From positions 1,568,141-1,600,140 of the forward strand of contig NC_003413.1 of NCBI RefSeq assembly GCF_000007305.1: DNA of 32,000 bases, given 5' to 3'. Below the pieces are notes generated by a model, which was given only the letters and a program-made list of their open reading frames with translations, was not told the origin of the DNA and did not search any database. The DNA is from Pyrococcus furiosus DSM 3638 (GTDB lineage: Archaea > Methanobacteriota_B > Thermococci > Thermococcales > Thermococcaceae). The translations under genes and the position numbers were made by a program. Below are positions 457-21,607 of this stretch, piece after piece; position 1 is the stretch's first letter; each line of letters opens with the position of its first letter.

Positions 457-486
457 TCTTTTTATTTTCTTTGTGGATGGTGATAG

Positions 487-551
487 GGTGATGCCACGCC
501 AATTTACACAGCAAAAGGTGATGCCCCGCCAATGGGTGATGCCCTGCCAAT
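487..551 (+). repeat. Three imperfect direct repeats GGTGATGCC(A/C)(C/T)GCCAAT at 487-503, 517-533 and 535-551; a fourth copy is at 13539-13555
   Basis: Direct reading: ggtgatgccacgccaat, ggtgatgccccgccaat, ggtgatgccctgccaat; starts spaced 30 and 18 nt apart. Confidence 0.9.
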
Positions 552-559
552 ATCAATAG
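491..559 (+). CDS. Candidate leader peptide MPRQFTQQKVMPRQWVMPCQYQ* (Phe/Trp/Tyr)
   Basis: ATG CCA CGC CAA TTT ACA CAG CAA AAG GTG ATG CCC CGC CAA TGG GTG ATG CCC TGC CAA TAT CAA TAG; SD-like GGTGAT at 479-484, 6 nt before the ATG; downstream of a putative TATA box and overlapping the HTH gene start in another frame. Confidence 0.5.
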   Translation: MPRQFTQQKVMPRQWVMPCQYQ

Positions 560-6509: not shown

Positions 6510-7706
6510 ATGAGAAAGGTAGGAATTACACTTTCTGTAGTTGCTCTAGTAATAATGGGATTTGTAGCAGGATGTATTGGTGGTACTCAAACCCAGGGAG
6601 AAAAAGTAAAGGTAGCAGTTCTCTTTGACGTTGGAGGGAGGGGAGATTTAAGCTTCAATGATATGGCATACTTAGGAGCAGAAAGGGCAAAGAAAGAACT
6701 TGGAGTAGAAGTTGAATACATGACTCCAAAGTCTCGTGAAGATATGGTACCTTTACTAAAGCAACTGGCTGAAAGCAAGGAATATGACCTCCTAGTTCTA
6801 ATTGGGTTCCTTTGGACTACTCCATTAGATCAAGTAGCAGATCAATATCCAGATCAAAAGTTTGCCCTCATAGACTCAACTACTGGAAAAGTTAGGGAGA
6901 ATGAAGTAGATATTCTCTTTAGAGAACAAGAAGCTGCAGCACTCATAGGCGTGATAGCCTCTGGAATGGCCTATGAACTTGGTGGCGATACCATAGGTGC
7001 TGTAGCTGGAATGGACATTCCACCACTTTGGAAATTCCACATAGGCTACCTCTATGGAGCAAAGTATTTTGAGAAGAAGACTGGGAAGCCCGTGAAGTTG
7101 CTCTGGCAGTACACTGGAACATTTACAGATACACAAGTTGGATACACTACTGGAATGCAACTGTTGCAACAGGGTGCCAAAGTTCTCTATGGCCTAGCAG
7201 GTCTAACTCACGTTGGAATGTTTGACGCAGTAATCGACTGGAATAAGCAAGGAAAGGGCAAAGCACTTGCTATTGGTCAAGACGCAAGTCAAGAGTGGTA
7301 TGCACCAGAGTATATCCCAATTAGCGGAGCTAAGAGAGTTGACGTTGCTGTTTATACGGCCATTGAAATGGTTGTCAAAAATCAATGGAAAGGAGGAATA
7401 ATGACCCTCGGTCTCAAAGAGGGAGGCGTTGGCTACTGGAATTTGGATGGAGTTAGGCAATTTGCAGAATTTGCCCAGGAGGGTGGAAAACTAAAAGACA
7501 TGACCCCAGAAGATGTTGTTAGAATAGTAAAAGAGCAGAGAGAGAAGTACATAAAGCCAGAAGTTTGGGAGATCGTGCGTGAGCTTGAGGAGAAGATAAA
7601 GAATGGAGAGATAAAGTTCAAGACACCACAGAGCCACGACGAATATGAGCAGATAATTAAGGAGTTAGAGAAAGGTAACTTAGATGCCGCCCTCGAAAAA
7701 GAGTAA
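6510..7706 (+). CDS. BMP family (Med/PnrA-like) substrate-binding lipoprotein of an ABC transporter
   Basis: Signal peptide with lipobox (FVAGCIGG); KVAVLFDVGGRGDLSFNDMAYLGAERA; followed by a matching ATPase and two permeases. Confidence 0.88.
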   Translation: MRKVGITLSVVALVIMGFVAGCIGGTQTQGEKVKVAVLFDVGGRGDLSFNDMAYLGAERAKKELGVEVEYMTPKSREDMVPLLKQLAESKEYDLLVLIGFLWTTPLDQVADQYPDQKFALIDSTTGKVRENEVDILFREQEAAALIGVIASGMAYELGGDTIGAVAGMDIPPLWKFHIGYLYGAKYFEKKTGKPVKLLWQYTGTFTDTQVGYTTGMQLLQQGAKVLYGLAGLTHVGMFDAVIDWNKQGKGKALAIGQDASQEWYAPEYIPISGAKRVDVAVYTAIEMVVKNQWKGGIMTLGLKEGGVGYWNLDGVRQFAEFAQEGGKLKDMTPEDVVRIVKEQREKYIKPEVWEIVRELEEKIKNGEIKFKTPQSHDEYEQIIKELEKGNLDAALEKE

Positions 7707-7750
7707 CTTTTTATTACCCCTTTCTCTTCTTTTTTCAGGTGTGCCAAGTT

Positions 7751-9256
7751 ATGAATGCAATTGAGATGGAGAATATAGTAAAGGTTTATCCAGATGGAGT
7801 TGTAGCCCTCAAGGGAGTCGACTTTAAAGTAGAAGCTGGGGAAATTCATGGTCTTCTTGGCGAGAACGGAGCTGGAAAAACAACGCTAATGAGGATCCTC
7901 TATGGGGAGATAAAGCCAACAAAGGGAAAAATAAGAGTTTTTGGAAAAGAAGTAAAATTTTCTGGGCCCTGGGACGCAATAAGATCAGGTATAGGAATGG
8001 TTTACCAGCACTTTACATTGGTCCCAACTTTTACTGTTCTTGAAAACCTTTACCTTGCCTTACTTCCATTAAATCCAAAAATTACCCTAAAAGAAGTCAA
8101 AAAACTTGCAAAAGAAAAGATGAAAGAAACTGGGCTCAAAATCCCCCTTGATGAAATAGTAGAGGATCTTCCTATTGGAATTCAGCAGAGAGTTGAGATA
8201 ACTAAGGCACTCATGCAAAATGCTAAGATTTTGATACTAGATGAGCCAACATCAGTATTAACTCCAATTGAAGTTAGAGAACTCTTCAAGACACTTAGAA
8301 AGCTCAAAGAAAAGGGAATTACAATAGTGTTCATTACCCACAAACTGAAGGAGGTAAAGGAGATAACTGATAGAGTCACCGTAATGCGAAGGGGAGAGGT
8401 AATTGGAACAGTGAAGACGAGTGAAGTTTCGGAAAAGGAGCTAGCAAAAATGATGGTGCAAAGGGACGTTGTAATGAAAATTGAGAAAATGCCCAAGGAG
8501 CCAGGAAAAACAGTGCTTAAGGTAGAGAATCTTTGGGTAAAGGACGATAGAGGATTAGATGCAGTAAAGGGAATATCACTAGAGATAAGGGAAGGAGAAA
8601 TACTCGGAATTGCAGGAGTTCAAGGAAATGGACAGAGAGAATTGGCTGAGACACTTGCAGGAGTTAGAAAACCAGAAAAAGGTAAAATTATCTTTGATAA
8701 AAAAGATATTACAAAAACAGGAGCACTTGAAAGATATAAGATGGGAATTGCATACGTTCCCGATTCCAGAAAAGTAGGATTAGTGGAAGAGATGAACATA
8801 GTAGAAAACACCATTCTCACAAATTTATTTGAAGTAGTTAAATCCGGAAGAATTTCTTGGGACAAGGGAAGAAAAATGGCAAAAGATATTGTAGAGAGGT
8901 TTGAAGTCATTACTCCATCCTTAGCTGCCAAAGTAAAACACTTGAGTGGAGGGAACCAACAAAAAATAATGGTTGGAAGAGAGATAATCAGAGAACCAAA
9001 GGTCTTCATAGTTGCAGAGCCAACTCAAGGGTTGGATATAGGAGCAACGGAATTCATAAGAAAAACATTACTGAATCTTAGAGATCAAGGAAAGGGAATT
9101 CTCCTAATTTCAACAGATCTAGATGAGATTCTTCAATTAAGTGATAGAATTGCCGTGATATATGAGGGTCAAATTATGGCAGTTGGAAAACCTGAAGAGT
9201 TCACCCTTGAGAAGCTAGGACTGCTAATGGGTGGTGTGCATGCTGAAAGTGAATGA
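7751..9256 (+). CDS. ABC transporter ATP-binding protein with two fused ATPase domains (nucleoside/BMP type)
   Basis: GLLGENGAGKTTLMRIL, VYQHFTLVPTFTVLENL, ILILDEPTSVLTP; second domain LSGGNQQKIMVGREI..VAEPTQGLD. ORF opens at 7739 but ATG 7751 is more likely. Confidence 0.92.
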   Translation: MNAIEMENIVKVYPDGVVALKGVDFKVEAGEIHGLLGENGAGKTTLMRILYGEIKPTKGKIRVFGKEVKFSGPWDAIRSGIGMVYQHFTLVPTFTVLENLYLALLPLNPKITLKEVKKLAKEKMKETGLKIPLDEIVEDLPIGIQQRVEITKALMQNAKILILDEPTSVLTPIEVRELFKTLRKLKEKGITIVFITHKLKEVKEITDRVTVMRRGEVIGTVKTSEVSEKELAKMMVQRDVVMKIEKMPKEPGKTVLKVENLWVKDDRGLDAVKGISLEIREGEILGIAGVQGNGQRELAETLAGVRKPEKGKIIFDKKDITKTGALERYKMGIAYVPDSRKVGLVEEMNIVENTILTNLFEVVKSGRISWDKGRKMAKDIVERFEVITPSLAAKVKHLSGGNQQKIMVGREIIREPKVFIVAEPTQGLDIGATEFIRKTLLNLRDQGKGILLISTDLDEILQLSDRIAVIYEGQIMAVGKPEEFTLEKLGLLMGGVHAESE

Positions 9257-10229
9257 GAAAACACTCGAAGTTATATCTTCGCTAATATTTGCATTCTTAA
9301 TAGGGGCAATTGTCTTAACATTGTTGGGATATAACCCGGCTAAAGTTTACATCATACTATTTAAATACGGGTACGGAAATCTTGAGTATCTCCTTAATAA
9401 AAGCACACCACTTATATTGACAGGACTTGCATTCTCAATACCAGCTCTTGCAGGTGTTTTTAACATAGGGGGAGAAAGCCAACTTTATGTAGGTGCACTT
9501 ACAGCCCTTCTAGTTGCTTATTATACAAGAAATCCTATTTTAGCCCTAATCCTCGGAGGAATAGCAGGAGGTGCCTTAGGACTTTTCATCGGAGCACTTA
9601 GAGTTTACAGAGGCATTAATGAAGTGATAACGGCAATAATGATAAACTGGACAATGTTCTACATTCTAGCGTACCTCATATCAGCCAAATACCACGATCC
9701 AAAAAATCCTCATGAATCCGTTCCAGTCCCATCTGAAGCAAGAATAGGGGGAATTTTCATAATTGCAGTTCTTATTGCTATTCTCTACTATTACCTCCTT
9801 AATTTTACGGAACTTGGGTACAAGTTGAGGGTGTCAGGATTGTCACCTAAATCTGCAAGGTATGCAGGGTTCAATCCCTCCAAGCTAATTCTCTCTTCAA
9901 TGCTATTGGGTGGTCTAGCTGCGGGCCTTGGAGGGGCCCTCTTAGTCCTGGGAATAACATATGCTATTGATGACACTCTCTCCACAGTATATGGAGTTGG
10001 ATTTACGGGAATAGGAATAGGGCTCTTGGGAAGGAACAATCCAATAGGAATAATATTCTCGGGAATATTTATGAGCGGACTGATAATTGGAGGGCAATGG
10101 GTTGAGTTAAAAACAGGAGCCCCACCAGAGCTTGCAGATACGCTAGTAGGTGTAATAGTGATAACCCTTGCAGTTCCCCAGCTGTATAGAGAAATTTTCA
10201 AGAGAATTAGGAGGGAGAAGCATGCTTGA
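9240..10229 (+). CDS. ABC transporter permease, BMP/nucleoside type (YufP-like)
   Basis: Hydrophobic protein with KSTPLILTGLAFSIPALAGVFNIGGESQLYVGA; ATG at 9240 chosen within the 9231 ORF. Confidence 0.87.
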   Translation: MLKVNEKTLEVISSLIFAFLIGAIVLTLLGYNPAKVYIILFKYGYGNLEYLLNKSTPLILTGLAFSIPALAGVFNIGGESQLYVGALTALLVAYYTRNPILALILGGIAGGALGLFIGALRVYRGINEVITAIMINWTMFYILAYLISAKYHDPKNPHESVPVPSEARIGGIFIIAVLIAILYYYLLNFTELGYKLRVSGLSPKSARYAGFNPSKLILSSMLLGGLAAGLGGALLVLGITYAIDDTLSTVYGVGFTGIGIGLLGRNNPIGIIFSGIFMSGLIIGGQWVELKTGAPPELADTLVGVIVITLAVPQLYREIFKRIRREKHA

Positions 10230-11130
10230 AGATGTATTTGTGCTTCTCTCAAACACATTATTTTCAATGGTCCCATTGGTTCTTGCTGGGGTTGGAGAAG
10301 TAATAACAGAGCGCTCTGGAGTGGTTAACATCGGGCTAGAGGGGATATTCATTCTCTCTGCCTTCCTCACAACTGTAGTTACGTTTTACACAGAAAATCC
10401 CTATCTGGGCCTCATAATTGGAATATTAGTTGGAGCACTCTCCGGACTTCTCCACGGGATAATCAGCGTATACTTGAAAGGTGATCAAATAATTGCAGGA
10501 GTTGGTTTTAATTCTCTAGCCTATGGAATAAGCATACTTTCACTTGTAGCCCTATGGCACAGTCACGGCTCCTCTCCTTCTGTAGAAAAGATGCCCGTAA
10601 TTATTATCGGCCACCTTACAATTCCCCCAATGGCAATAGTGGCAATATTAGTTGGAGTAATTACATGGTGGTGGCTATATAAAACTCCAAGCGGTTTAAA
10701 ACTGAGAGCTTGTGGAGAGGATCCAAGAGCTGCTGAGGCTATGGGGGTTAACGTTCACAGAACTAGGCTATATGCAACGATGGTGGGGGGAGCTTTAACT
10801 GGGCTCGGAGGTGCGTATTTAGTTGTGGGATGGATAGGGCAGTTTACAAAGTTTATATCGGCAGGAAGAGGATTCATAGCCCTAGCAAATGTAGCTTTCA
10901 GCAATTGGAATCCACTGATGGCAGTGGTGGGGGGAATTATATTTGGATTCTTTGACGCACTGTCAATATACGTACCAATAAAGATCCAGAAAACCACTGG
11001 AAGAATAATAACCGCAGAATCAAATCTCTTTAGGATAATCCCATATATAGGAACATTATTAGTGGTCACAATAATCATGAAAAAAGTTAAAGCTCCCAGG
11101 GCTCTTGGGAAACCTTATATCAAGGAGTAA
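10222..11130 (+). CDS. ABC transporter permease, BMP/nucleoside type (YufQ-like)
   Basis: TLFSMVPLVLAGVGEVITERSGVVNIGLEGIF, GDQIIAGVGFNSLAYGIS; GGGAGAAG SD before ATG 10222 (ORF opens at 10168). Confidence 0.87.
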   Translation: MLEDVFVLLSNTLFSMVPLVLAGVGEVITERSGVVNIGLEGIFILSAFLTTVVTFYTENPYLGLIIGILVGALSGLLHGIISVYLKGDQIIAGVGFNSLAYGISILSLVALWHSHGSSPSVEKMPVIIIGHLTIPPMAIVAILVGVITWWWLYKTPSGLKLRACGEDPRAAEAMGVNVHRTRLYATMVGGALTGLGGAYLVVGWIGQFTKFISAGRGFIALANVAFSNWNPLMAVVGGIIFGFFDALSIYVPIKIQKTTGRIITAESNLFRIIPYIGTLLVVTIIMKKVKAPRALGKPYIKE

Positions 11131-12427: not shown

Positions 12428-13511
12428 ATGGGAAAATGTTGTCATTTCACTTATTTGGAGAGAGTCATGGGAAAGCCGTAGGAGAGTTCTAATAGAAGGA
12501 GTGCCTCCTGGGATAAGAGTTAACCTGGAGGAGTTAAAAGCCGAACTTGAAAGAAGAAAGGGGATTTCCAAATTTTCAACTGCCAGAAAAGAGAGCGACG
12601 AACCTATAATAATTTCCGGAGTTTTTAGAGGATACACTACTGGAGCTCCAATAACAGTAATTGTGGAAAATAAAGACGTAGATTCTTCATATTATGAGGA
12701 GATCAAAGATACTCCTCGACCTGGGCATGCAGATTATCCAGCAAAGATCAAGTATTTTGGCTTCAATGACTATCGAGGAGGAGGAAGGTTTTCTGGAAGG
12801 CTAACTATAGGCTTTGTAATCGCCGGATATTTCGCCAAGAAGATTCTCGAACCAGTGGGAGTAAAAATTAAAGCCTATATAAAGAGAGTTGGAAAAGTGG
12901 AAGCTAGAAACATGAGCATCGAGGAAATATTCAATTCTCCGAACCCTTACTGCCCAGATGAAGATGCATTTAAAGAGATGCTTAAGGAGATGGAAAGTGC
13001 AAAAAAGTCTGGAGACAGCGTTGGTGGAGTGGTAGAGGTTGTTGCAATAAACGTTCCCCCAGGATTAGGTGGACCTTATGAGGATGATATAGAAGCTGAT
13101 CTTGCCTCAACATTTTTCAGAATTCCAGCTGTAAAGGGTGTTGAGTTTGGACTTGGATTTAAGGTTAGTGAAAAGAGAGGTAGTGAAGTAAACGACCCTT
13201 ATGTCATAAAGAACGGAGAAATACAGACGGTAACAAACAATCATGGAGGCATTATAGGAGGAATAACAACAGGAATGCCAATAGTAGCTAGAATAGCGTT
13301 CAAACCAACTCCCTCAATATACCTTCCCCAAAAAACCGTAAATTTAAGAGAAATGAAGGAAACAACTATAAAGCTAAAGGGGAGATTTGACTCCTGCATA
13401 GTTCCTAAAGCTCTTCCCGTGGTTGAAGGTGCAATGGCCTTTGTGCTTGCAGATCACTTTCTTAGGAGGTTAGCCTGGGAAAGATATGTCCACCTATCCA
13501 AAGAATTTTAA
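12424..13511 (+). CDS. aroC: Chorismate synthase, frameshifted near 12481-12486 in this sequence
   Basis: N-terminal MNGKMLSFHLFGESHGKAVG (12424-12483) is followed in another frame by VLIEGVPPGIRVNLEELKAELERRKG... to 13511. ATGA overlap with the aroA stop. Confidence 0.88.
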
Positions 13512-13517
13512 ATAAAA
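13505..13517 (+). promoter_or_regulatory. Putative internal TATA box for the chorismate mutase-aminotransferase-tyrA unit
   Basis: AT-rich ATTTTAAATAAAA spans the aroC stop, about 30 nt upstream of the MPRQY leader ORF. Confidence 0.4.
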
Positions 13518-13536: not shown

Positions 13537-13569
13537 ATGGTGATGCCACGCCAATATCAACGAATTTAG
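13537..13569 (+). CDS. Candidate leader peptide MVMPRQYQRI* (Tyr)
   Basis: ATG GTG ATG CCA CGC CAA TAT CAA CGA ATT TAG; shares ggtgatgcc-cgccaatatcaa with the 5' leader of the aro cluster and ends 8 nt before the chorismate mutase ATG. Confidence 0.45.
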   Translation: MVMPRQYQRI

Positions 13570-13577
13570 ATGAACAA

Positions 13578-13808
13578 ATGACAACATTAAAACTCCTTAG
13601 AAAGGAGATAGATAAAATAGACAACCAAATAATATCTCTTCTAAAAAAGAGACTTGAAATAGCCCAAGCAATTGGGAAAATAAAGAAAGAGCTCAATCTC
13701 CCCATAGAAGATAGAAAAAGAGAAGAAGAAGTTCTAAGAAGAGCTGGCGAGTTTAGGGAAATTTTTGAAAAGATTTTGGAGGTTAGCAAAGATGTTCAAC
13801 GTTTATGA
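13578..13808 (+). CDS. Chorismate mutase (AroQ type)
   Basis: LLRKEIDKIDNQIISLLKKRLEIAQAIGKIKKELNLPIEDRKREEEVLRRAG is the classical AroQ motif pattern. Confidence 0.92.
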   Translation: MTTLKLLRKEIDKIDNQIISLLKKRLEIAQAIGKIKKELNLPIEDRKREEEVLRRAGEFREIFEKILEVSKDVQRL

Positions 13809-14829
13809 GCTATTTAATAAGATAAATGAGGTAAAACCAGAGATTCGACTTGATGCAGGACAACCAGATATCCCCGTAGCTAACGAAATAATAGAAGAAG
13901 CCATAAATTCTCTAAAAAGGGGAGAAACTGGCTATGTAAGTACAACTGGAATTAACGAGTTGAGAGAAAAGATAGCAGAAGTAGAAGGAGTGAGCAAAGA
14001 AGAGGTAATTGTTGGGCCTGGAGCCAAAATATTGATAGCTGCAGAGATAGCAATGGCCAACAAGATTGGAGTAATTGCCCCCTACTGGAATGCCTACCTA
14101 TTGATAGCCAAGAACTTTGAAAAAGAAGTTAAAATAATTGAGACAACATTAGAAAACTCCTGGGAGCCTGAAATTAACGACAACTTAGATGTTGACCTCC
14201 TAATTCTCAACTACCCCAATAACCCTACTGGAAAAATACTCCCAAGAGAAAAACTCAAAGAACTCGTAGAAGTTGCAGAAGAGAAAGGAATCAAAATTCT
14301 TTCCGATGAAATCTATGCTGAAATTTCTTTTAAGTCATTTACTCCTGTTCGAGAGCTCTATGAAAACACGGTCACCGTAAAGGGGTTCTCCAAACTGTAT
14401 TCAATGACTGGCTTTAGGCTTGGATACGCTATTGCCGATAAGGAAGAGATAAGGAAAATAAAAACATTCATTGAATCAACTGTCACCTGTGTTCCTCCTT
14501 TCGTTCAAAGGGCTGGGATCAAGGCTTTGGAGCTTAGAGATGAGTTAATGAAAAAAGTGAGTAGGGAGTATAAGAGAAGAGCAGAACTTGCCTCCAAAAT
14601 CTTGAGGGGATTAGAGTTCTATGAACCCGATGGAGCATTCTACATATTCCTCAAAACACCCATTGATGGGTTGGAATTTGTCTATAAACTACTCGAGAGG
14701 GGAGTTTCAGCATTCCCAGGAATAGCGTTTGGAAATTATCAAAACTTCATAAGGATCTCACTAACGAGTGATAAGCTCGAGAAGGGATTAAACATAATCA
14801 AGGAGGTAGCAGAATGCGAATCACAATAA
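13792..14829 (+). CDS. PLP-dependent class I/II aminotransferase, probably aromatic/prephenate-linked
   Basis: DAGQPDIPV, GPGAKILIAAEIAM, LLILNYPNNPTGKI, SDEIYAEISF, VKGFSKLYSMTGFRLGY; ATG 13792 within the 13765 ORF. Confidence 0.87.
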   Translation: MFNVYELFNKINEVKPEIRLDAGQPDIPVANEIIEEAINSLKRGETGYVSTTGINELREKIAEVEGVSKEEVIVGPGAKILIAAEIAMANKIGVIAPYWNAYLLIAKNFEKEVKIIETTLENSWEPEINDNLDVDLLILNYPNNPTGKILPREKLKELVEVAEEKGIKILSDEIYAEISFKSFTPVRELYENTVTVKGFSKLYSMTGFRLGYAIADKEEIRKIKTFIESTVTCVPPFVQRAGIKALELRDELMKKVSREYKRRAELASKILRGLEFYEPDGAFYIFLKTPIDGLEFVYKLLERGVSAFPGIAFGNYQNFIRISLTSDKLEKGLNIIKEVAECESQ

Positions 14830-15588
14830 GTGGATATGGTAAAATGGGAAAACTCTTTGGAAGAGTTCTTTCTGAGGAATTAAACTCAGAAGTGAAATTT
14901 TACTCTAGCCATACAATACTAGATTTTTCCACCCTTAGTGAAGCCTATGAATGGAGTGATGTTATGATACTCGCCTCCACAATAGATAACATAAAAGCTC
15001 AGATTAGGGAGTTAAGAGAGATATCATTGAGTAATCCAAAAGATATTATGATTTTTGACATAGCAACGTTCAAAAAAGACGTACTTACCGAGTACCAAGG
15101 ATTTCCCAGGGAGGTAAAAGTAGCAAGCGTCCACCCAATGTTCGGCCCAGGAGCTAAGAGTTTTAGGGGGCATTTATTTTATCGTTGTCCCTGTAAAGGG
15201 CAGGGAAAAAGACGCCGAAGATGTCGGAAAGTTTATCGAAGGATTGGGGGGAAAAGTTGAATTTATGAGTGTGGAGGAGCATGATAGAATAGTTGGATTC
15301 GTTATTGGAGTGCCCTATCTATTGGGCATTGCATATCTTAAACTATCACTTGAAAACAATCTAGAAAGATTTGGGGGGACCTCTTTTAGATTTCTAACAA
15401 TTTATGGAAAGGCAGTGCTAAATGATGGTCCAAGGTTTATAGAAGAAGTCATTAGAAGATCTAGAGAAGAGATAGCAGAATTCCTAAAGAGTATAGATTC
15501 TGTAAATGTGCATGAACTATCTAAAAAAGTCTCAAGAGAAGAGATAGAGAGGGCATATGAAAAGTTTTACAAAATTTTAGATCCCTAA
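14814..15588 (+). CDS. tyrA: Prephenate dehydrogenase, frameshifted around 15165-15180 in this sequence
   Basis: ISGYGKMGKLFGRVL...ASVHPMFGPGAKSFRG in frame 1; FIVVPVKGREKDAEDVGKFIEGLGGKVEFMSVEEHDRIVGFVIGVPY... continues in another frame to 15588. Confidence 0.88.
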
Positions 15589-20917: not shown

Positions 20918-21603
20918 TATATCTCAGCCTCCACGAATTTTTTGAGAAGTTCTGCGGGATTTTCAGCTTTCATTAAAGCCGTCCCAATGAGTGCAGCATC
21001 AGCAACCCTTAAGGCCCTCTTCAAATCTTCCAATGTTGCTATTCCGCTTTCACTAACTTTCACGAATTTTCCTGGGATTTTTGGAGCTAAAATTTCAGTT
21101 AGAGAAACATCTCCATCGTCCATCTCTAGCTTTCCAATGTCCCTATTGTTTATTCCTATCATTGTAGAATTTGTTTTAATTGCGAGCTTTAGCTCATCTT
21201 CGGTATGAACTTCCACTAGAGTGTCAAGCCCATGCTCTTTTGCATAATCCACAAACTCTGGCAGCTTATCTTTCAATATTCTAGTTATTAATAGAACAGC
21301 AGAGGCACCAACTTCGGCAGTTTTTTCAATTTCCTCTTTGCTTGTTATAAAGTCCTTCCTCAGCACTGGGAGGGTAGTTTCCTTACATAAAACTTTTAGA
21401 AAGTCAAAGCTCCCTTTGAAATACTTTTGATCTGTTATGTAAGAAATCCCCACAGCTCCAGCTTCTTCATATGCCCTCAAAATCCTTAGAGGATCCCTGC
21501 CCCGTAAAAGATCTCCATATTTTGGAGAATAGACTTTGATTTCTGCTATAATAGGATTTTTCTTAGCCTTTCTAATAGCCCTGCTCAGTCCAAAAATCAC
21601 CAC
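20917..21603 (-). CDS. trpC: Indole-3-glycerol-phosphate synthase (first gene of the trp operon)
   Basis: IIAEIKVYSPKYGDLLRGRDPLRILRAYEEAGAVGISYITD, GINNRDIGKLE, KVSESGI; GTG start at 21603. Confidence 0.95.
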   Translation of the reverse strand: MVIFGLSRAIRKAKKNPIIAEIKVYSPKYGDLLRGRDPLRILRAYEEAGAVGISYITDQKYFKGSFDFLKVLCKETTLPVLRKDFITSKEEIEKTAEVGASAVLLITRILKDKLPEFVDYAKEHGLDTLVEVHTEDELKLAIKTNSTMIGINNRDIGKLEMDDGDVSLTEILAPKIPGKFVKVSESGIATLEDLKRALRVADAALIGTALMKAENPAELLKKFVEAEI

Positions 21604-21607
21604 CCAT
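21572..21607 (-). CDS. Candidate leader ORF MGGDFWTEQGY* overlapping the trpC start
   Basis: Minus strand ATG GGT GGT GAT TTT TGG ACT GAG CAG GGC TAT TAG, preceded by SD-like GGTGGAG with a 4-nt spacer. Confidence 0.3.
   Translation of the reverse strand: MGGDFWTEQGY

Follow-up and report, generated by a model that had tools for sequence, protein, structure and literature searches.

Aromatic codon cassettes at the head of archaeal aromatic amino acid operons: a candidate -1 frame switch in Pyrococcus furiosus

The aromatic amino acid operon of Pyrococcus furiosus opens with a tiny unannotated open reading frame (ORF) that contains codons for Phe, Trp and Tyr once each, every one of them directly behind a copy of a 17-nt cassette. 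The same cassette was found in 94 tar-linked loci of several archaeal phyla. On the evidence of reading frames and codon choice we favour, with some reserve, a mechanism in which ribosomes start at the leader AUG and slip by -1 into the following gene at a hungry aromatic codon.

The leader ORF, its cassettes and its transcript

The leader ORF occupies positions 491-559 of the window (the whole stretch of 32,000 nucleotides of P. furiosus DSM 3638 DNA that was analysed; all features given below lie on its forward strand), from ATG 491 to TAG 557-559. As read from the sequence, its 22 codons encode MPRQFTQQKVMPRQWVMPCQYQ, a peptide of the pattern MPRQF..MPRQW..MPCQY. It is preceded by a GGTGAT hexamer (479-484), which is both the predicted transcription start (G479) and, with a spacer of 6 nt to the leader AUG, the predicted Shine-Dalgarno sequence (SD), and by the TATA box of the aro/tar promoter, TTTAAATA (448-455), a box that is identical in sequence and distance in all Thermococcales orthologs. 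An earlier note on this DNA had described a 22-codon ORF with an SD-like GGTGAT 6 nt upstream and a TATA box, and each of these elements was confirmed. Directly 5' of BRE/TATA, a pattern search located a Tar-box-like operator, TGGATAGGAACAGTTGCCCA (424-443), with 2 mismatches to the T. kodakarensis consensus TGGACA-N8-TGTCCA, the Tar box that lies upstream of BRE/TATA in that species (PMC6737238). The position of the leader ORF is the head of the Tar regulon.

Primary transcription start sites (TSSs) determined by dRNA-seq in T. kodakarensis lie 58 nt (TK0271) and 111 nt (TK0261) upstream of the annotated ATGs. The T. kodakarensis locus was represented here by the near-identical MAG locus L003, which all Tko primers match with 0-3 mismatches. 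On L003 both TSSs coincide with the initial G of the GGTGAT/GGTGAC hexamer before the cassette, and published run-off lengths agree with the mapped TSSs within 2 nt. The L003 start lies 24 nt after the TATA box, and an equal distance in the window leads to 479. Transferred to the window, the T. kodakarensis data would therefore place the 5' end of the aro mRNA at about 479, in the GGUGAU hexamer, upstream of 491 and not downstream of it, the alternative raised by the earlier note. Because the 5' end is placed at the GGTGAT just upstream, AUG 491 would be the first AUG of the mRNA. Spacing between GGTGAT and the start of long ORFs peaks at 3-7 nt in the histogram; it amounts to 4-6 nt for the leader AUG and to 9 nt for the tar-frame AUG/AUA. 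As the first AUG of the mRNA, and with a normally spaced SD, the leader is very probably translated.

Three direct copies of the unit GGTGATGCCNNGCCAAT begin at 487, 517 and 535; successive starts are 30 and 18 nt apart, each distance a multiple of 3. The first, R1 (GGTGATGCCACGCCAAT, 487-503), runs into the Phe codon TTT (503-505) and is conserved together with it in at least 8 Thermococcales lineages. R2 (GGTGATGCCCCGCCAAT, 517-533) runs into the Trp codon TGG (533-535), which overlaps the annotated tar ATG (532-534) inside the leader ORF, an arrangement also visible in the T. kodakarensis primers. R3 (GGTGATGCCCTGCCAAT, 535-551) is followed by the Tyr codon TAT (551-553) and, shortly after it, by the leader stop; the Tyr type is the most widespread type of cassette. 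The threefold unit with its three different aromatic codons, as the earlier note had it, is therefore present. Allowing up to 3 mismatches, the unit has 5 matches in the window against 0.5 expected, and its recurrence there is not due to chance.

A fourth cassette, at 13539-13555, is an exact copy of GGTGATGCCACGCCAAT followed by TAT (13555-13557), and heads the chorismate mutase operon behind a near-identical BRE/TATA. Its leader ORF (13543-13569) encodes MPRQYQRI*; an in-frame ATG at 13537 would give MVMPRQYQRI*. The tyr-phe operon promoter (13495-13514) comprises a Tar half-site, TATCCA (13495-13500), and a TATA box (13507-13514), and Tar half-sites adjoin the TATA boxes of both the tyr-phe and the trp promoters. 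Orthologous copies of the fourth cassette occur in five other loci (L002, L003, L006, L212 and L213). The chorismate mutase gene PF1701 (13578-13808) is read in the -1 frame of the cassette, which is open from 13539, and its CM_2 domain begins 19 codons after the start of the cassette.

Conservation of the aromatic codon and of the -1 frame

Across the loci the cassette has the form (G)GUGAUG-N5-CCAA-U followed by an aromatic codon. In the leader frame, the SD-like GUGAU is followed at a constant distance by the Gln codon CAA and a codon for Phe, Trp or Tyr, with a stop soon after. TAT, TAC, TTT, TTC or TGG came next after 75 of 80 cassettes (94%) at the archaeal tar-linked loci, which are phylogenetically non-independent. 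The corresponding figure was 39 (32%) among 121 random matches to the 17-mer in metagenomes, a chance control drawn from about 120 unrelated single matches (soil, gut) to GGTGATGNCNNGCCAAT, which has 14 specified bases. The earlier note's view that the aromatic codons are non-random, despite a repeat ending in T that constrains the codon after it, is upheld by this difference. Both members of the synonymous pairs TAT/TAC and TTT/TTC occur, and no stop, Leu, Ser or Cys codon was seen after a cassette at the tar/aro sites surveyed. One cassette in L014 is followed by ATG; apart from it, no ortholog with a cassette carried a non-aromatic codon, a loss that the earlier note had considered. In Thermococcales the residue after the ATA of the -1 frame varies between S, L and F, with an invariant first base T.

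The leader frame itself was never found broken in orthologs, the other form of decay envisaged in the earlier note. Leader ORFs are retained where R1 has decayed (P. abyssi, NA2, L210 and T. stetteri); in the R1-decayed lineages the leader frame is open and has its own SD, and the tar frame contains stops in 4 of 5. T. stetteri has lost the Phe codon, and P. abyssi, NA2 and L210 have aro genes with the Trp cassette only. The order of cassettes before tar differs between phyla (F-W-Y, F-Y-W, F-Y and W-W-Y), and the multi-cassette arrays arose in different orders from phylum to phylum. A Phe cassette stands ahead of pheA in both cases found. Selection on the leader aromatic codons as codons is supported by these comparisons.

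A second open frame across the repeats is that of tar itself. The tar homolog PF1687 (532-846), identified by homology search as a winged-helix activator homologous to TK0271, is read in the leader frame minus 1, which is open from 487. Tar homologs are 72-87% identical across Thermococcales, with an invariant STLKLNA..LGLI core, and tar is the first gene of the aro operon, followed by transketolase, DAHP synthase and other aro genes. The -1 frame was open into the downstream gene for 74 of 75 cassettes: tar in 59, chorismate mutase in 6, prephenate dehydratase in 2 (here behind a Phe cassette) and a bridge ORF in 7. The bridge ORFs have 48-62 amino acids, and the 5 that were checked all terminate no more than about 17 nt from the ATG of DAHP synthase. 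The first cassette of L065 has a closed -1 frame.

In most lineages the -1 frame lacks a start of its own. Between the cassette and the conserved core, no ATG, GTG or TTG was present in the tar frame at 14 of the 18 non-Thermococcales loci in which the core was located (26 examined); none was present in the -1 frame in 4 of 7 single-cassette Thermococcales, nor in 3 of 6 chorismate mutase genes, including that of the Tko-like locus. In this window both genes possess a start, at ATG 532 for tar and at ATG 13578 for chorismate mutase, and P. furiosus shares an in-frame tar ATG with the other three-cassette lineages. A frameshift is not strictly needed for P. furiosus tar, because ATG 532 is present in frame, and recombinant Tar made from the in-frame ATG of tar binds DNA and activates transcription (PMC6737238). 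Considering all cassettes, we infer that the -1 frame is translated.

A candidate hungry-codon switch and its alternatives

In the proposed switch, a ribosome on the leader would read through when the matching aminoacyl-tRNA is plentiful and terminate after a few codons, yielding a micropeptide only. When Phe-, Trp- or Tyr-tRNA is scarce, it would pause while the P site is occupied by CAA and the A site is empty, slip back by one base (CAA to CCA), read AUU, AUG or AUA and continue into Tar. The single Tyr cassette at 13539 would work likewise, directly for chorismate mutase. In published T. kodakarensis microarrays the three operons were all induced whenever one of the aromatic amino acids was absent (PMC6737238), a response that three cassettes in series would explain.

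The slip site is C CAA UNN, on which tandem re-pairing is impossible; P-site CAA re-pairing on CCA keeps two of three pairs. No slippery heptamer of the form X XXY YYZ was present in the sequence at the cassette, and a point against the slip is the central mismatch of tRNA-Gln on CCA. In every cassette GUGAU precedes the CAA codon by a constant 7 nt. A hairpin is predicted downstream at 540-573, at both 37 and 85°C, with arms at 540-548 and 565-573 (UGCCCUGCC / GGCGGGGUA); its stem starts 4 nt past the Trp codon, and both the Tyr codon and the leader stop fall within its loop. The hairpin is also predicted in P. chitonophagus, L003 and T. stetteri, while L002 has another stem and L213 uses the R2 arm. 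Single-cassette lineages lack the hairpin, and their leaders are unstructured at 85°C. Since the hairpin is confined to three-cassette lineages, a conserved downstream stimulatory structure was rejected as a feature common to all cassettes. Transcriptional slippage at the CCCC stretch within the cassette was likewise rejected as a cause of the shift in frame, since conservation of this stretch is lacking (GCCACGCC, GCAACGCC, GCCTTCCC).

The earlier note had proposed a bacterial-type attenuator or a translational switch governed by stalling at the aromatic codons. Classical attenuation is unsupported, because no terminator/antiterminator pair and no T-run were found at the leader, which overlaps the regulated gene. 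The notion of a ribosome-mediated switch fares better, in that the comparative data fit a switch of frame to -1; control by simple stalling does not, because a ribosome stalled at the Trp or Tyr codon would cover the tar start and regulation would have the wrong sign. This weighs against the first alternative, an ordinary leader peptide or uORF at which stalling, without any frameshift, would alter access to the tar start, the stability of the mRNA 5' end, or transcription-translation coupling with premature termination. Such a uORF agrees with a real leader whose aromatic codons are selected, and with the tar ATG that three-cassette species possess. In some lineages the leader stop overlaps a tar-frame TTG or ATG (L002 TATTGATGG, L009 TATTGATAG and L013 pheA), resembling termination-reinitiation, and in T. 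kodakarensis RNA-seq the reads of TK0271 exceed those of TK0270 about 10-fold, which is compatible with early termination. However, a canonical in-frame start is lacking in half of the chorismate mutase genes and, the three-cassette group aside, in most tar genes; there is neither a terminator-like T-run nor an alternative hairpin pair, and leaders with one cassette form no stable structure. Nor would such a uORF explain why CAA is invariant, why GUGAU stands at a fixed distance and why the -1 frame is open throughout. We consider an ordinary uORF unlikely for these reasons.

The missing starts could also be accounted for if the cassette were a ribosome-binding module for non-AUG initiation, with GGUGAU as SD, AUU, AUG or AUA 9 bases on as the start, and the leader AUG as a decoy. 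One of these three triplets does occupy a constant place in the frame of the gene, and that of R2 is the annotated tar ATG. The 9-nt spacing, however, falls outside the 3-7 nt of GGTGAT-led genes. The base after AUA or AUU is only U or C, and that after AUG only G, a restriction that is meaningful only in the leader frame, and the G of the leader AUG is conserved though it adds nothing to SD pairing. Thermoplasmata copies, moreover, carry CGUGAU or AGUGAU. Initiation of this kind therefore seems improbable; to our knowledge, AUA and AUU starts have not been established in archaea.

It is very unlikely that the repeats serve as DNA sites for a repressor at the transcription start, or as RNA sites for a TRAP-like protein, with the frames incidental. 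The cassette does lie at +9 to +73 of two Tar-dependent promoters, and nucleotides are conserved (GTGATG, CCAAT) beyond the need of a four-residue peptide. Yet it is non-palindromic, always on the sense strand and always within the transcript; the spacings of the repeats shift only by multiples of 3 (30 versus 36 nt), it is precisely the wobble base of the aromatic codon that varies synonymously, and the -1 frame is continuous with four different types of gene. Rfam covariance models run against positions 350-900 gave nothing near gathering score. A GD(A/V)PP(I/M) peptide repeat as the N-terminal part of Tar is presupposed by several automatic gene calls, which extend many homologs through the repeats (e.g. 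IGDVPPIYEVVKPGDVPPMGDAPPIL), and a GTG of that frame at the mRNA 5' end of L001-L003 and L213 would permit it. This reading is scarcely credible, given that TAG 484-486 closes the frame just before R1 in P. furiosus, that stops are found there also in P. chitonophagus, P. abyssi, NA2, L210 and T. stetteri, that the identical 'motif' precedes the unrelated chorismate mutase, prephenate dehydratase and bridge ORF, and that the extended calls run across the TATA box. The protein-repeat and DNA-operator readings were both rejected on this evidence of frame, stop, strand and spacing.

For the -1 switch as a general device, the prospects appear evenly balanced. It would be a modular sensor common to Thermococcales, Thermoplasmatota, Korarchaeia/Thermoproteota, Nitrososphaeria and Aenigmatarchaeota, through which Tar, chorismate mutase and prephenate dehydratase would be made only if the matching charged tRNA is scarce, with DAHP synthase boosted by coupling.

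Relation to known systems

Sensing of amino acid supply by a leader peptide is a textbook mechanism of bacteria, exemplified by trpL and pheL of Escherichia coli. In Corynebacterium glutamicum, the AroR leader with its Phe-Tyr-Phe sequence lies upstream of aroF (PMC11802643). The archaeal leader resembles these in being a very short 5' ORF of a biosynthesis transcript with codons for the end products, and, like AroR, joins more than one aromatic amino acid; in the bacterial systems the translating ribosome senses charged tRNA, and the same is proposed for the archaeal cassette. Unlike them, the archaeal leader has no terminator/antiterminator hairpins and overlaps a -1-frame gene that often lacks a start codon. 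Its regulatory codon sits within a 17-nt cassette conserved in nucleotides, one copy per amino acid, and its primary target is a transcription activator and not enzymes only. In the literature searched, nothing relevant was found on an archaeal leader peptide, uORF or frameshift tied to aromatic amino acids, nor was a description of an archaeal counterpart of leader-peptide amino acid sensing.

The only reported archaeal -1 programmed ribosomal frameshift (PRF) is that of fucA1 of Saccharolobus solfataricus (PMC8211752). As in fucA1 and E. coli dnaX, the downstream product of the cassette lies in the -1 frame of an early-terminating upstream ORF; an SD-like sequence upstream of the proposed shift site recalls dnaX, and in three-cassette lineages only, a hairpin follows the Trp codon by a few nt as in -1 PRF. 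The cassette differs from both in having no slippery heptamer; what is proposed instead is one slip in the P site while the A site is empty, and the output of the cassette would depend on amino acid supply, unlike the fixed ratio of -1 PRF. In prfB (RF2) and antizyme, as proposed here, slow decoding of the A-site codon settles whether translation ends early or changes frame to yield the functional product, and prfB likewise has an upstream SD-like element; these two, however, shift +1 and sense release factor or polyamines. Descriptions of hungry-codon shifting concern errors of starvation or engineered reporters, and we know of none in which it serves biosynthesis genes as a natural sensor of amino acids. 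According to the account of Gallant and Lindsley's work cited in PMC8211752, -1 shifts at hungry codons proceed through P-site slippage under limiting aminoacyl-tRNA.

The P. furiosus locus shares with the TK0271 regulon a tar homolog, three operons and a Tar box before BRE/TATA. Tar activates all three operons and did not respond to Trp, Tyr or Phe in vitro; how the cell senses these amino acids was given as unknown, and erythrose 4-phosphate was proposed as effector (PMC6737238). The model of that paper contains no sensor of Trp, Tyr or Phe, the leader cassettes are not described in it, and TK0261 is annotated from an internal Met (PMC6737238). The 2019 study left the sensing of Trp, Tyr or Phe lack open because Tar itself does not bind them; the cassette offers a concrete, testable answer for Thermococcus and, if the proposal is true, would explain how the Tar regulon detects the loss of any single aromatic amino acid. 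It would then be the first ribosome-based amino acid sensing in Archaea and the first natural regulatory use of hungry-codon frameshifting. Confirmation of the frame switch would define a new class of regulatory recoding and provide a portable Phe-, Trp- or Tyr-specific switch for hyperthermophile genetics. The compact motif GTGATG-N5-CCAA with an aromatic codon offers a means of locating regulated genes in different archaeal phyla. The analysis also corrects annotation: TK0261 appears to be mis-started for want of a start codon in its own frame, as do many genes for Tar and chorismate mutase, and at the Tko-like locus the annotated TK0261 start cuts off the first 19 positions of the CM_2 profile.

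The leader ORF and its locus

The leader ORF described in an earlier note was recovered when the sequence was re-read, beginning at ATG 491, comprising 22 codons (MPRQFTQQKVMPRQWVMPCQYQ*), ending at 559 and preceded by GGTGAT at 479-484. The threefold repeat reported with it is a 17-nt unit, GGTGATGCCNNGCCAAT, present at 487, 517 and 535 and followed by TTT, TGG and TAT, respectively; the unit is referred to below as the cassette. A fourth, exact copy at 13539-13555 lies behind a near-identical BRE/TATA and ahead of the chorismate mutase gene PF1701, at the head of which the ORF MPRQYQRI* begins within the cassette.

The window belongs to P. furiosus DSM 3638; its positions correspond to old RefSeq coordinates minus 1,568,140, and the ORF at 532-846 is PF1687, by sequence a homolog of the T. 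kodakarensis activator TK0271 (Tar). In T. kodakarensis, all three aromatic operons are induced whenever a single aromatic amino acid (Trp, Tyr or Phe) is missing (PMC6737238). The lysine/arginine cluster (PF1686) stops at 378, upstream of the aro/tar promoter, where a Tar-box-like sequence detected by pattern match, TGGATAGGAACAGTTGCCCA (424-443), adjoins a TATA box at 448-455. Downstream of PF1687 are a split transketolase, DAHP synthase, dehydroquinate synthase and the remaining aro genes.

Several further features of the locus were noted. A perfect palindrome, TGACAAATTTTGTCA, and a direct repeat, TTGACAAA, occur at 407-421 and 375-382, 30-70 nt upstream of the Tar box, and palindromes of the form GACA..TGTC or TTTGTC..GACAAA occupy the equivalent place in other Thermococcales (9806-9826 in the T. 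kodakarensis-like MAG locus L003, about 9870 in L084); a second regulator may bind there. Genes for a BMP-family binding protein and an ABC transporter (PF1695-PF1698; 6510-11130) separate shikimate kinase from EPSP synthase within the aro operon. P. chitonophagus, ST04, P. abyssi and NA2 share this insertion, which none of the examined Thermococcus species (T. gammatolerans, T. stetteri and L213) carries. Prephenate dehydrogenase is called as two overlapping ORFs, PF1703 (14814-15260) and PF1704 (15244-15588), a split shared by L213, and could be either a frameshifted or a truly split gene. In T. kodakarensis RNA-seq data, reads for TK0271 exceed those of the next gene, TK0270, by about 10-15x under two conditions (Additional file 10, PMC4247193), suggesting that, after tar, transcription stops prematurely or a 5’ fragment is stably retained.

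Conservation of the cassettes and selection on the aromatic codon

Comparison of the orthologous loci of about 20 Thermococcales genomes and MAGs showed that the Phe-Trp-Tyr leader recurs in several lineages and that the ORF is kept even where cassettes have decayed. Leaders with all three cassettes, such as MSRQFTRPSNQVMSRQWVMPRQY* and MSSQFMEYKPVKSRQWVMPNQY*, are present in P. furiosus, P. chitonophagus, Pyrococcus ST04, T. kodakarensis/L003, L001, L002, L006 and L213. A GC hairpin that is predicted to remain stable at 85°C begins 4 nt past the Trp codon in three-cassette lineages such as P. furiosus. The spacing between the first two cassettes is 30 or 36 nt, differing only by multiples of 3. 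The leader of T. stetteri reads Trp-Trp-Tyr, its first cassette having decayed, with the ORF retained from a well-spaced GTG. Only the Trp cassette remains in P. abyssi, NA2 and L210, yet an SD-led ORF of equal length spans the decayed part. The T. barophilus/sibiricus-like group has one Tyr cassette only (MPRQYL*, MSRQYL* or MPRQY*), and the tyr-phe promoter bears a single Tyr cassette in six lineages. The aro genes have been lost from P. horikoshii and P. kukulkanii, where eroded remnants of the leader persist as natural cases of decay after loss of the pathway. In both (L087 and L208, around 9986) tar is kept, with BMP/ABC transporter genes directly after it, and the leaders read MSCQWKYLP* and MSRQWVMPH*, respectively.

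Among other tar-linked loci from the genome search, the cassette, as (A/C/G)GTGATG-N5-CCAAT, was found ahead of tar homologs in MAGs of Thermoplasmata, Korarchaeia/Thermoproteota, Nitrososphaeria, Aenigmatarchaeota and DHVE2, with leaders that include MPRQYELPR*, MPCQFEKSMVVMPGQYLLPC*, MSRQYR* and MPSQFMKEGMPSQYGKRTMDVMPSQWA*. By this sequence distribution the cassette is far older than the Thermococcales. When the base after CCAA was left free in the search pattern, the next codon was aromatic in 75 of 80 distinct cassettes (TAT 37, TGG 16, TTT 10, TAC 8 and TTC 4), and three of the five exceptions were isolated matches far from tar. Aromatic codons followed 32% of 121 random metagenome 17-mer matches, the chance value (5 in 16). 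The occurrence of TAC and TTC shows that selection acts upon codon meaning and not upon the DNA alone. Residues between GTGATG and CCAA vary (P/S/Q, then R/C/H/Y/N/S), and their variability against the fixed GTGATG and CCAA, an invariance that follows from the search definition, points to a sequence-level function of the cassette as well.

In seven Thermoplasmata MAGs (L012, L018, L019, L022, L023, L024 and L026) a class I DAHP synthase gene is preceded, across a bridge ORF of 48-62 codons, by a Tyr cassette that has a separate Tar half-site and TATA box; tar comes second and is served by another promoter and cassette. The leader has a constant 9 codons, MP(R/C/Y)QY(E/Q/L)LP(R/G)*. In two metagenomic chorismate mutase lineages, P0064 and P0061, compared at the protein level, the cassette has decayed, its position reading NNGDVSLMTKQ or GNCDVSSNL, and in P0064 an in-frame ATG has arisen.

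Transcript start and the frame of the downstream genes

In T. kodakarensis, dRNA-seq placed the primary start site of TK0271 58 nt before its ATG and that of TK0261 111 nt before the annotated ATG (Jäger et al. 2014, PMC4247193). L003, a Thermococcaceae MAG, served as a stand-in for this genome, all primers of the Tar study matching it with 0-3 mismatches and ORF lengths being identical. Placed on L003, both sites coincide with the leading G of GGTGATC or GGTGAC, the hexamer directly before the first cassette, and the published run-off lengths (286 and 360 nt; PMC6737238) agree with them to within 2 nt. Transferred by equal TATA-to-start distance, the P. furiosus start would be at about 479, upstream of the leader ATG at 491 as a translated leader entails, and the leader AUG would therefore be the first of the transcript, about 10-12 nt from its 5’ end. 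In about 20 Thermococcales loci, long ORFs most often start 3-7 nt after GGTGAT; this spacing is 4-6 nt for the leader AUG and an atypical 9 nt for the tar-frame ATG/ATA within the cassette.

The frame of the downstream gene lies one base upstream of that of the leader (GGT GAT GCC ...), and this -1 frame runs without a stop into the downstream reading frame in 74 of 75 cassettes. It leads to tar from 59 cassettes, to chorismate mutase from six, all Tyr cassettes, to prephenate dehydratase from two, both Phe cassettes, and to the bridge ORF from the seven of Thermoplasmata. In the five loci checked, no more than about 17 nt separate the stop of the bridge ORF from the start codon of DAHP synthase, by sequence the usual geometry of translational coupling. 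No ATG, GTG or TTG occurs between the transcription start and the conserved core in 14 of the 18 non-Thermococcales tar genes with a located core (26 examined); an own start codon is also absent from 4/7 single-cassette Thermococcales tar genes and from three of six chorismate mutase genes, the T. kodakarensis-like one among them. Because the -1 frame lacks a start codon, gene calls for homologs of such genes are truncated or run back across the TATA box. The annotated TK0261 begins at an internal Met and lacks the first 19 CM_2 profile positions.

A candidate frame switch and its alternatives

A good leader AUG, a selected aromatic codon and a gene in the -1 frame, often without a start, are most simply reconciled by initiation at the leader AUG and a -1 change at the aromatic codon, a mechanism to which we give slightly better than an even chance. 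With ample aminoacyl-tRNA the ribosome would decode the aromatic codon and terminate 0-10 codons on. If the A site stayed empty, peptidyl-tRNA-Gln would move back from CAA onto CCA, bringing AUU, AUG or AUA into the A site, and the ribosome would go on to translate Tar, chorismate mutase or prephenate dehydratase. The accepted way in which hungry codons cause -1 shifting is slippage of a single tRNA while the A site is vacant (reviewed in PMC8211752). An SD-like GUGAU stands at a constant 7 nt upstream of CAA. Upstream frameshift stimulators are known from dnaX and prfB, of which this arrangement is reminiscent. The proposed switch gives the correct regulatory sign at all three codons, and it accounts for the induction of the whole Tar regulon by the lack of any single aromatic amino acid. 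Against it, the cassette has no slippery heptamer and re-pairing is imperfect, P. furiosus tar (532) and chorismate mutase (13578) each have an in-frame ATG, cassettes have been lost from some lineages and two are irregular (L014 and L065). In form the system resembles sensor frameshifts such as prfB, and also -1 PRF, apart from the missing heptamer.

Non-AUG initiation at the AUA or AUU of the cassette would have to proceed at an atypical SD spacing and leaves the constraint on the next base unexplained: in Thermococcales, the -1-frame ATA is followed by a codon for Ser, Leu or Phe whose first base is always T, a base needed only for TAT in the leader frame. A protein-binding site on DNA or RNA does not account for the frame-preserving spacing, the wobble variation or the strict strandedness. 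The ribosome-mediated attenuator or translational switch put forward in the earlier note stands in part. The aromatic codons are under selection, and a translational switch fits the comparative data; a conventional uORF or attenuator fails, since downstream genes often lack start codons, terminator structures are absent and the regulatory sign is wrong at the Trp and Tyr codons. A GDxPP protein repeat was excluded by stops just upstream in Pyrococcus (TAG 484-486) and by the occurrence of the cassette ahead of unrelated proteins.

In function the leader is akin to bacterial leader-peptide sensing by trpL, pheL and C. glutamicum AroR (a Phe-Tyr-Phe leader), while falling outside the structural definition of an attenuator. 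No archaeal aromatic leader, uORF or frameshift was described in the literature searched, the leader region had no match in Rfam, and fucA1 is the sole known case of -1 PRF in Archaea (PMC8211752). The leader was rated a variant of ribosome-mediated sensing through regulatory codons; that it represents a categorically new recoding switch has an even chance.

A short out-of-frame ORF with adjacent Phe and Trp codons also overlaps the trpC start, at 21572-21607 on the minus strand and at the trpC starts of L212 and L213, encoding MGGDFWTEQGY* in P. furiosus, MTGDGFWPEQSY* in L213 and (V)SGDGFWIEQDD* in T. stetteri. The start of this ORF is well spaced from its SD, whereas GGTG lies immediately next to the annotated start of trpC. 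At a hungry UGG, a ribosome on GGU UUU UGG A could make a perfect +1 slip (UUU to UUU) and enter the trpC frame; alternatively, the ORF could be a side effect of the conservation of (V/I)FGLS at the N-terminus of TrpC. In T. kodakarensis, transcription begins only 18 nt upstream of trpC.
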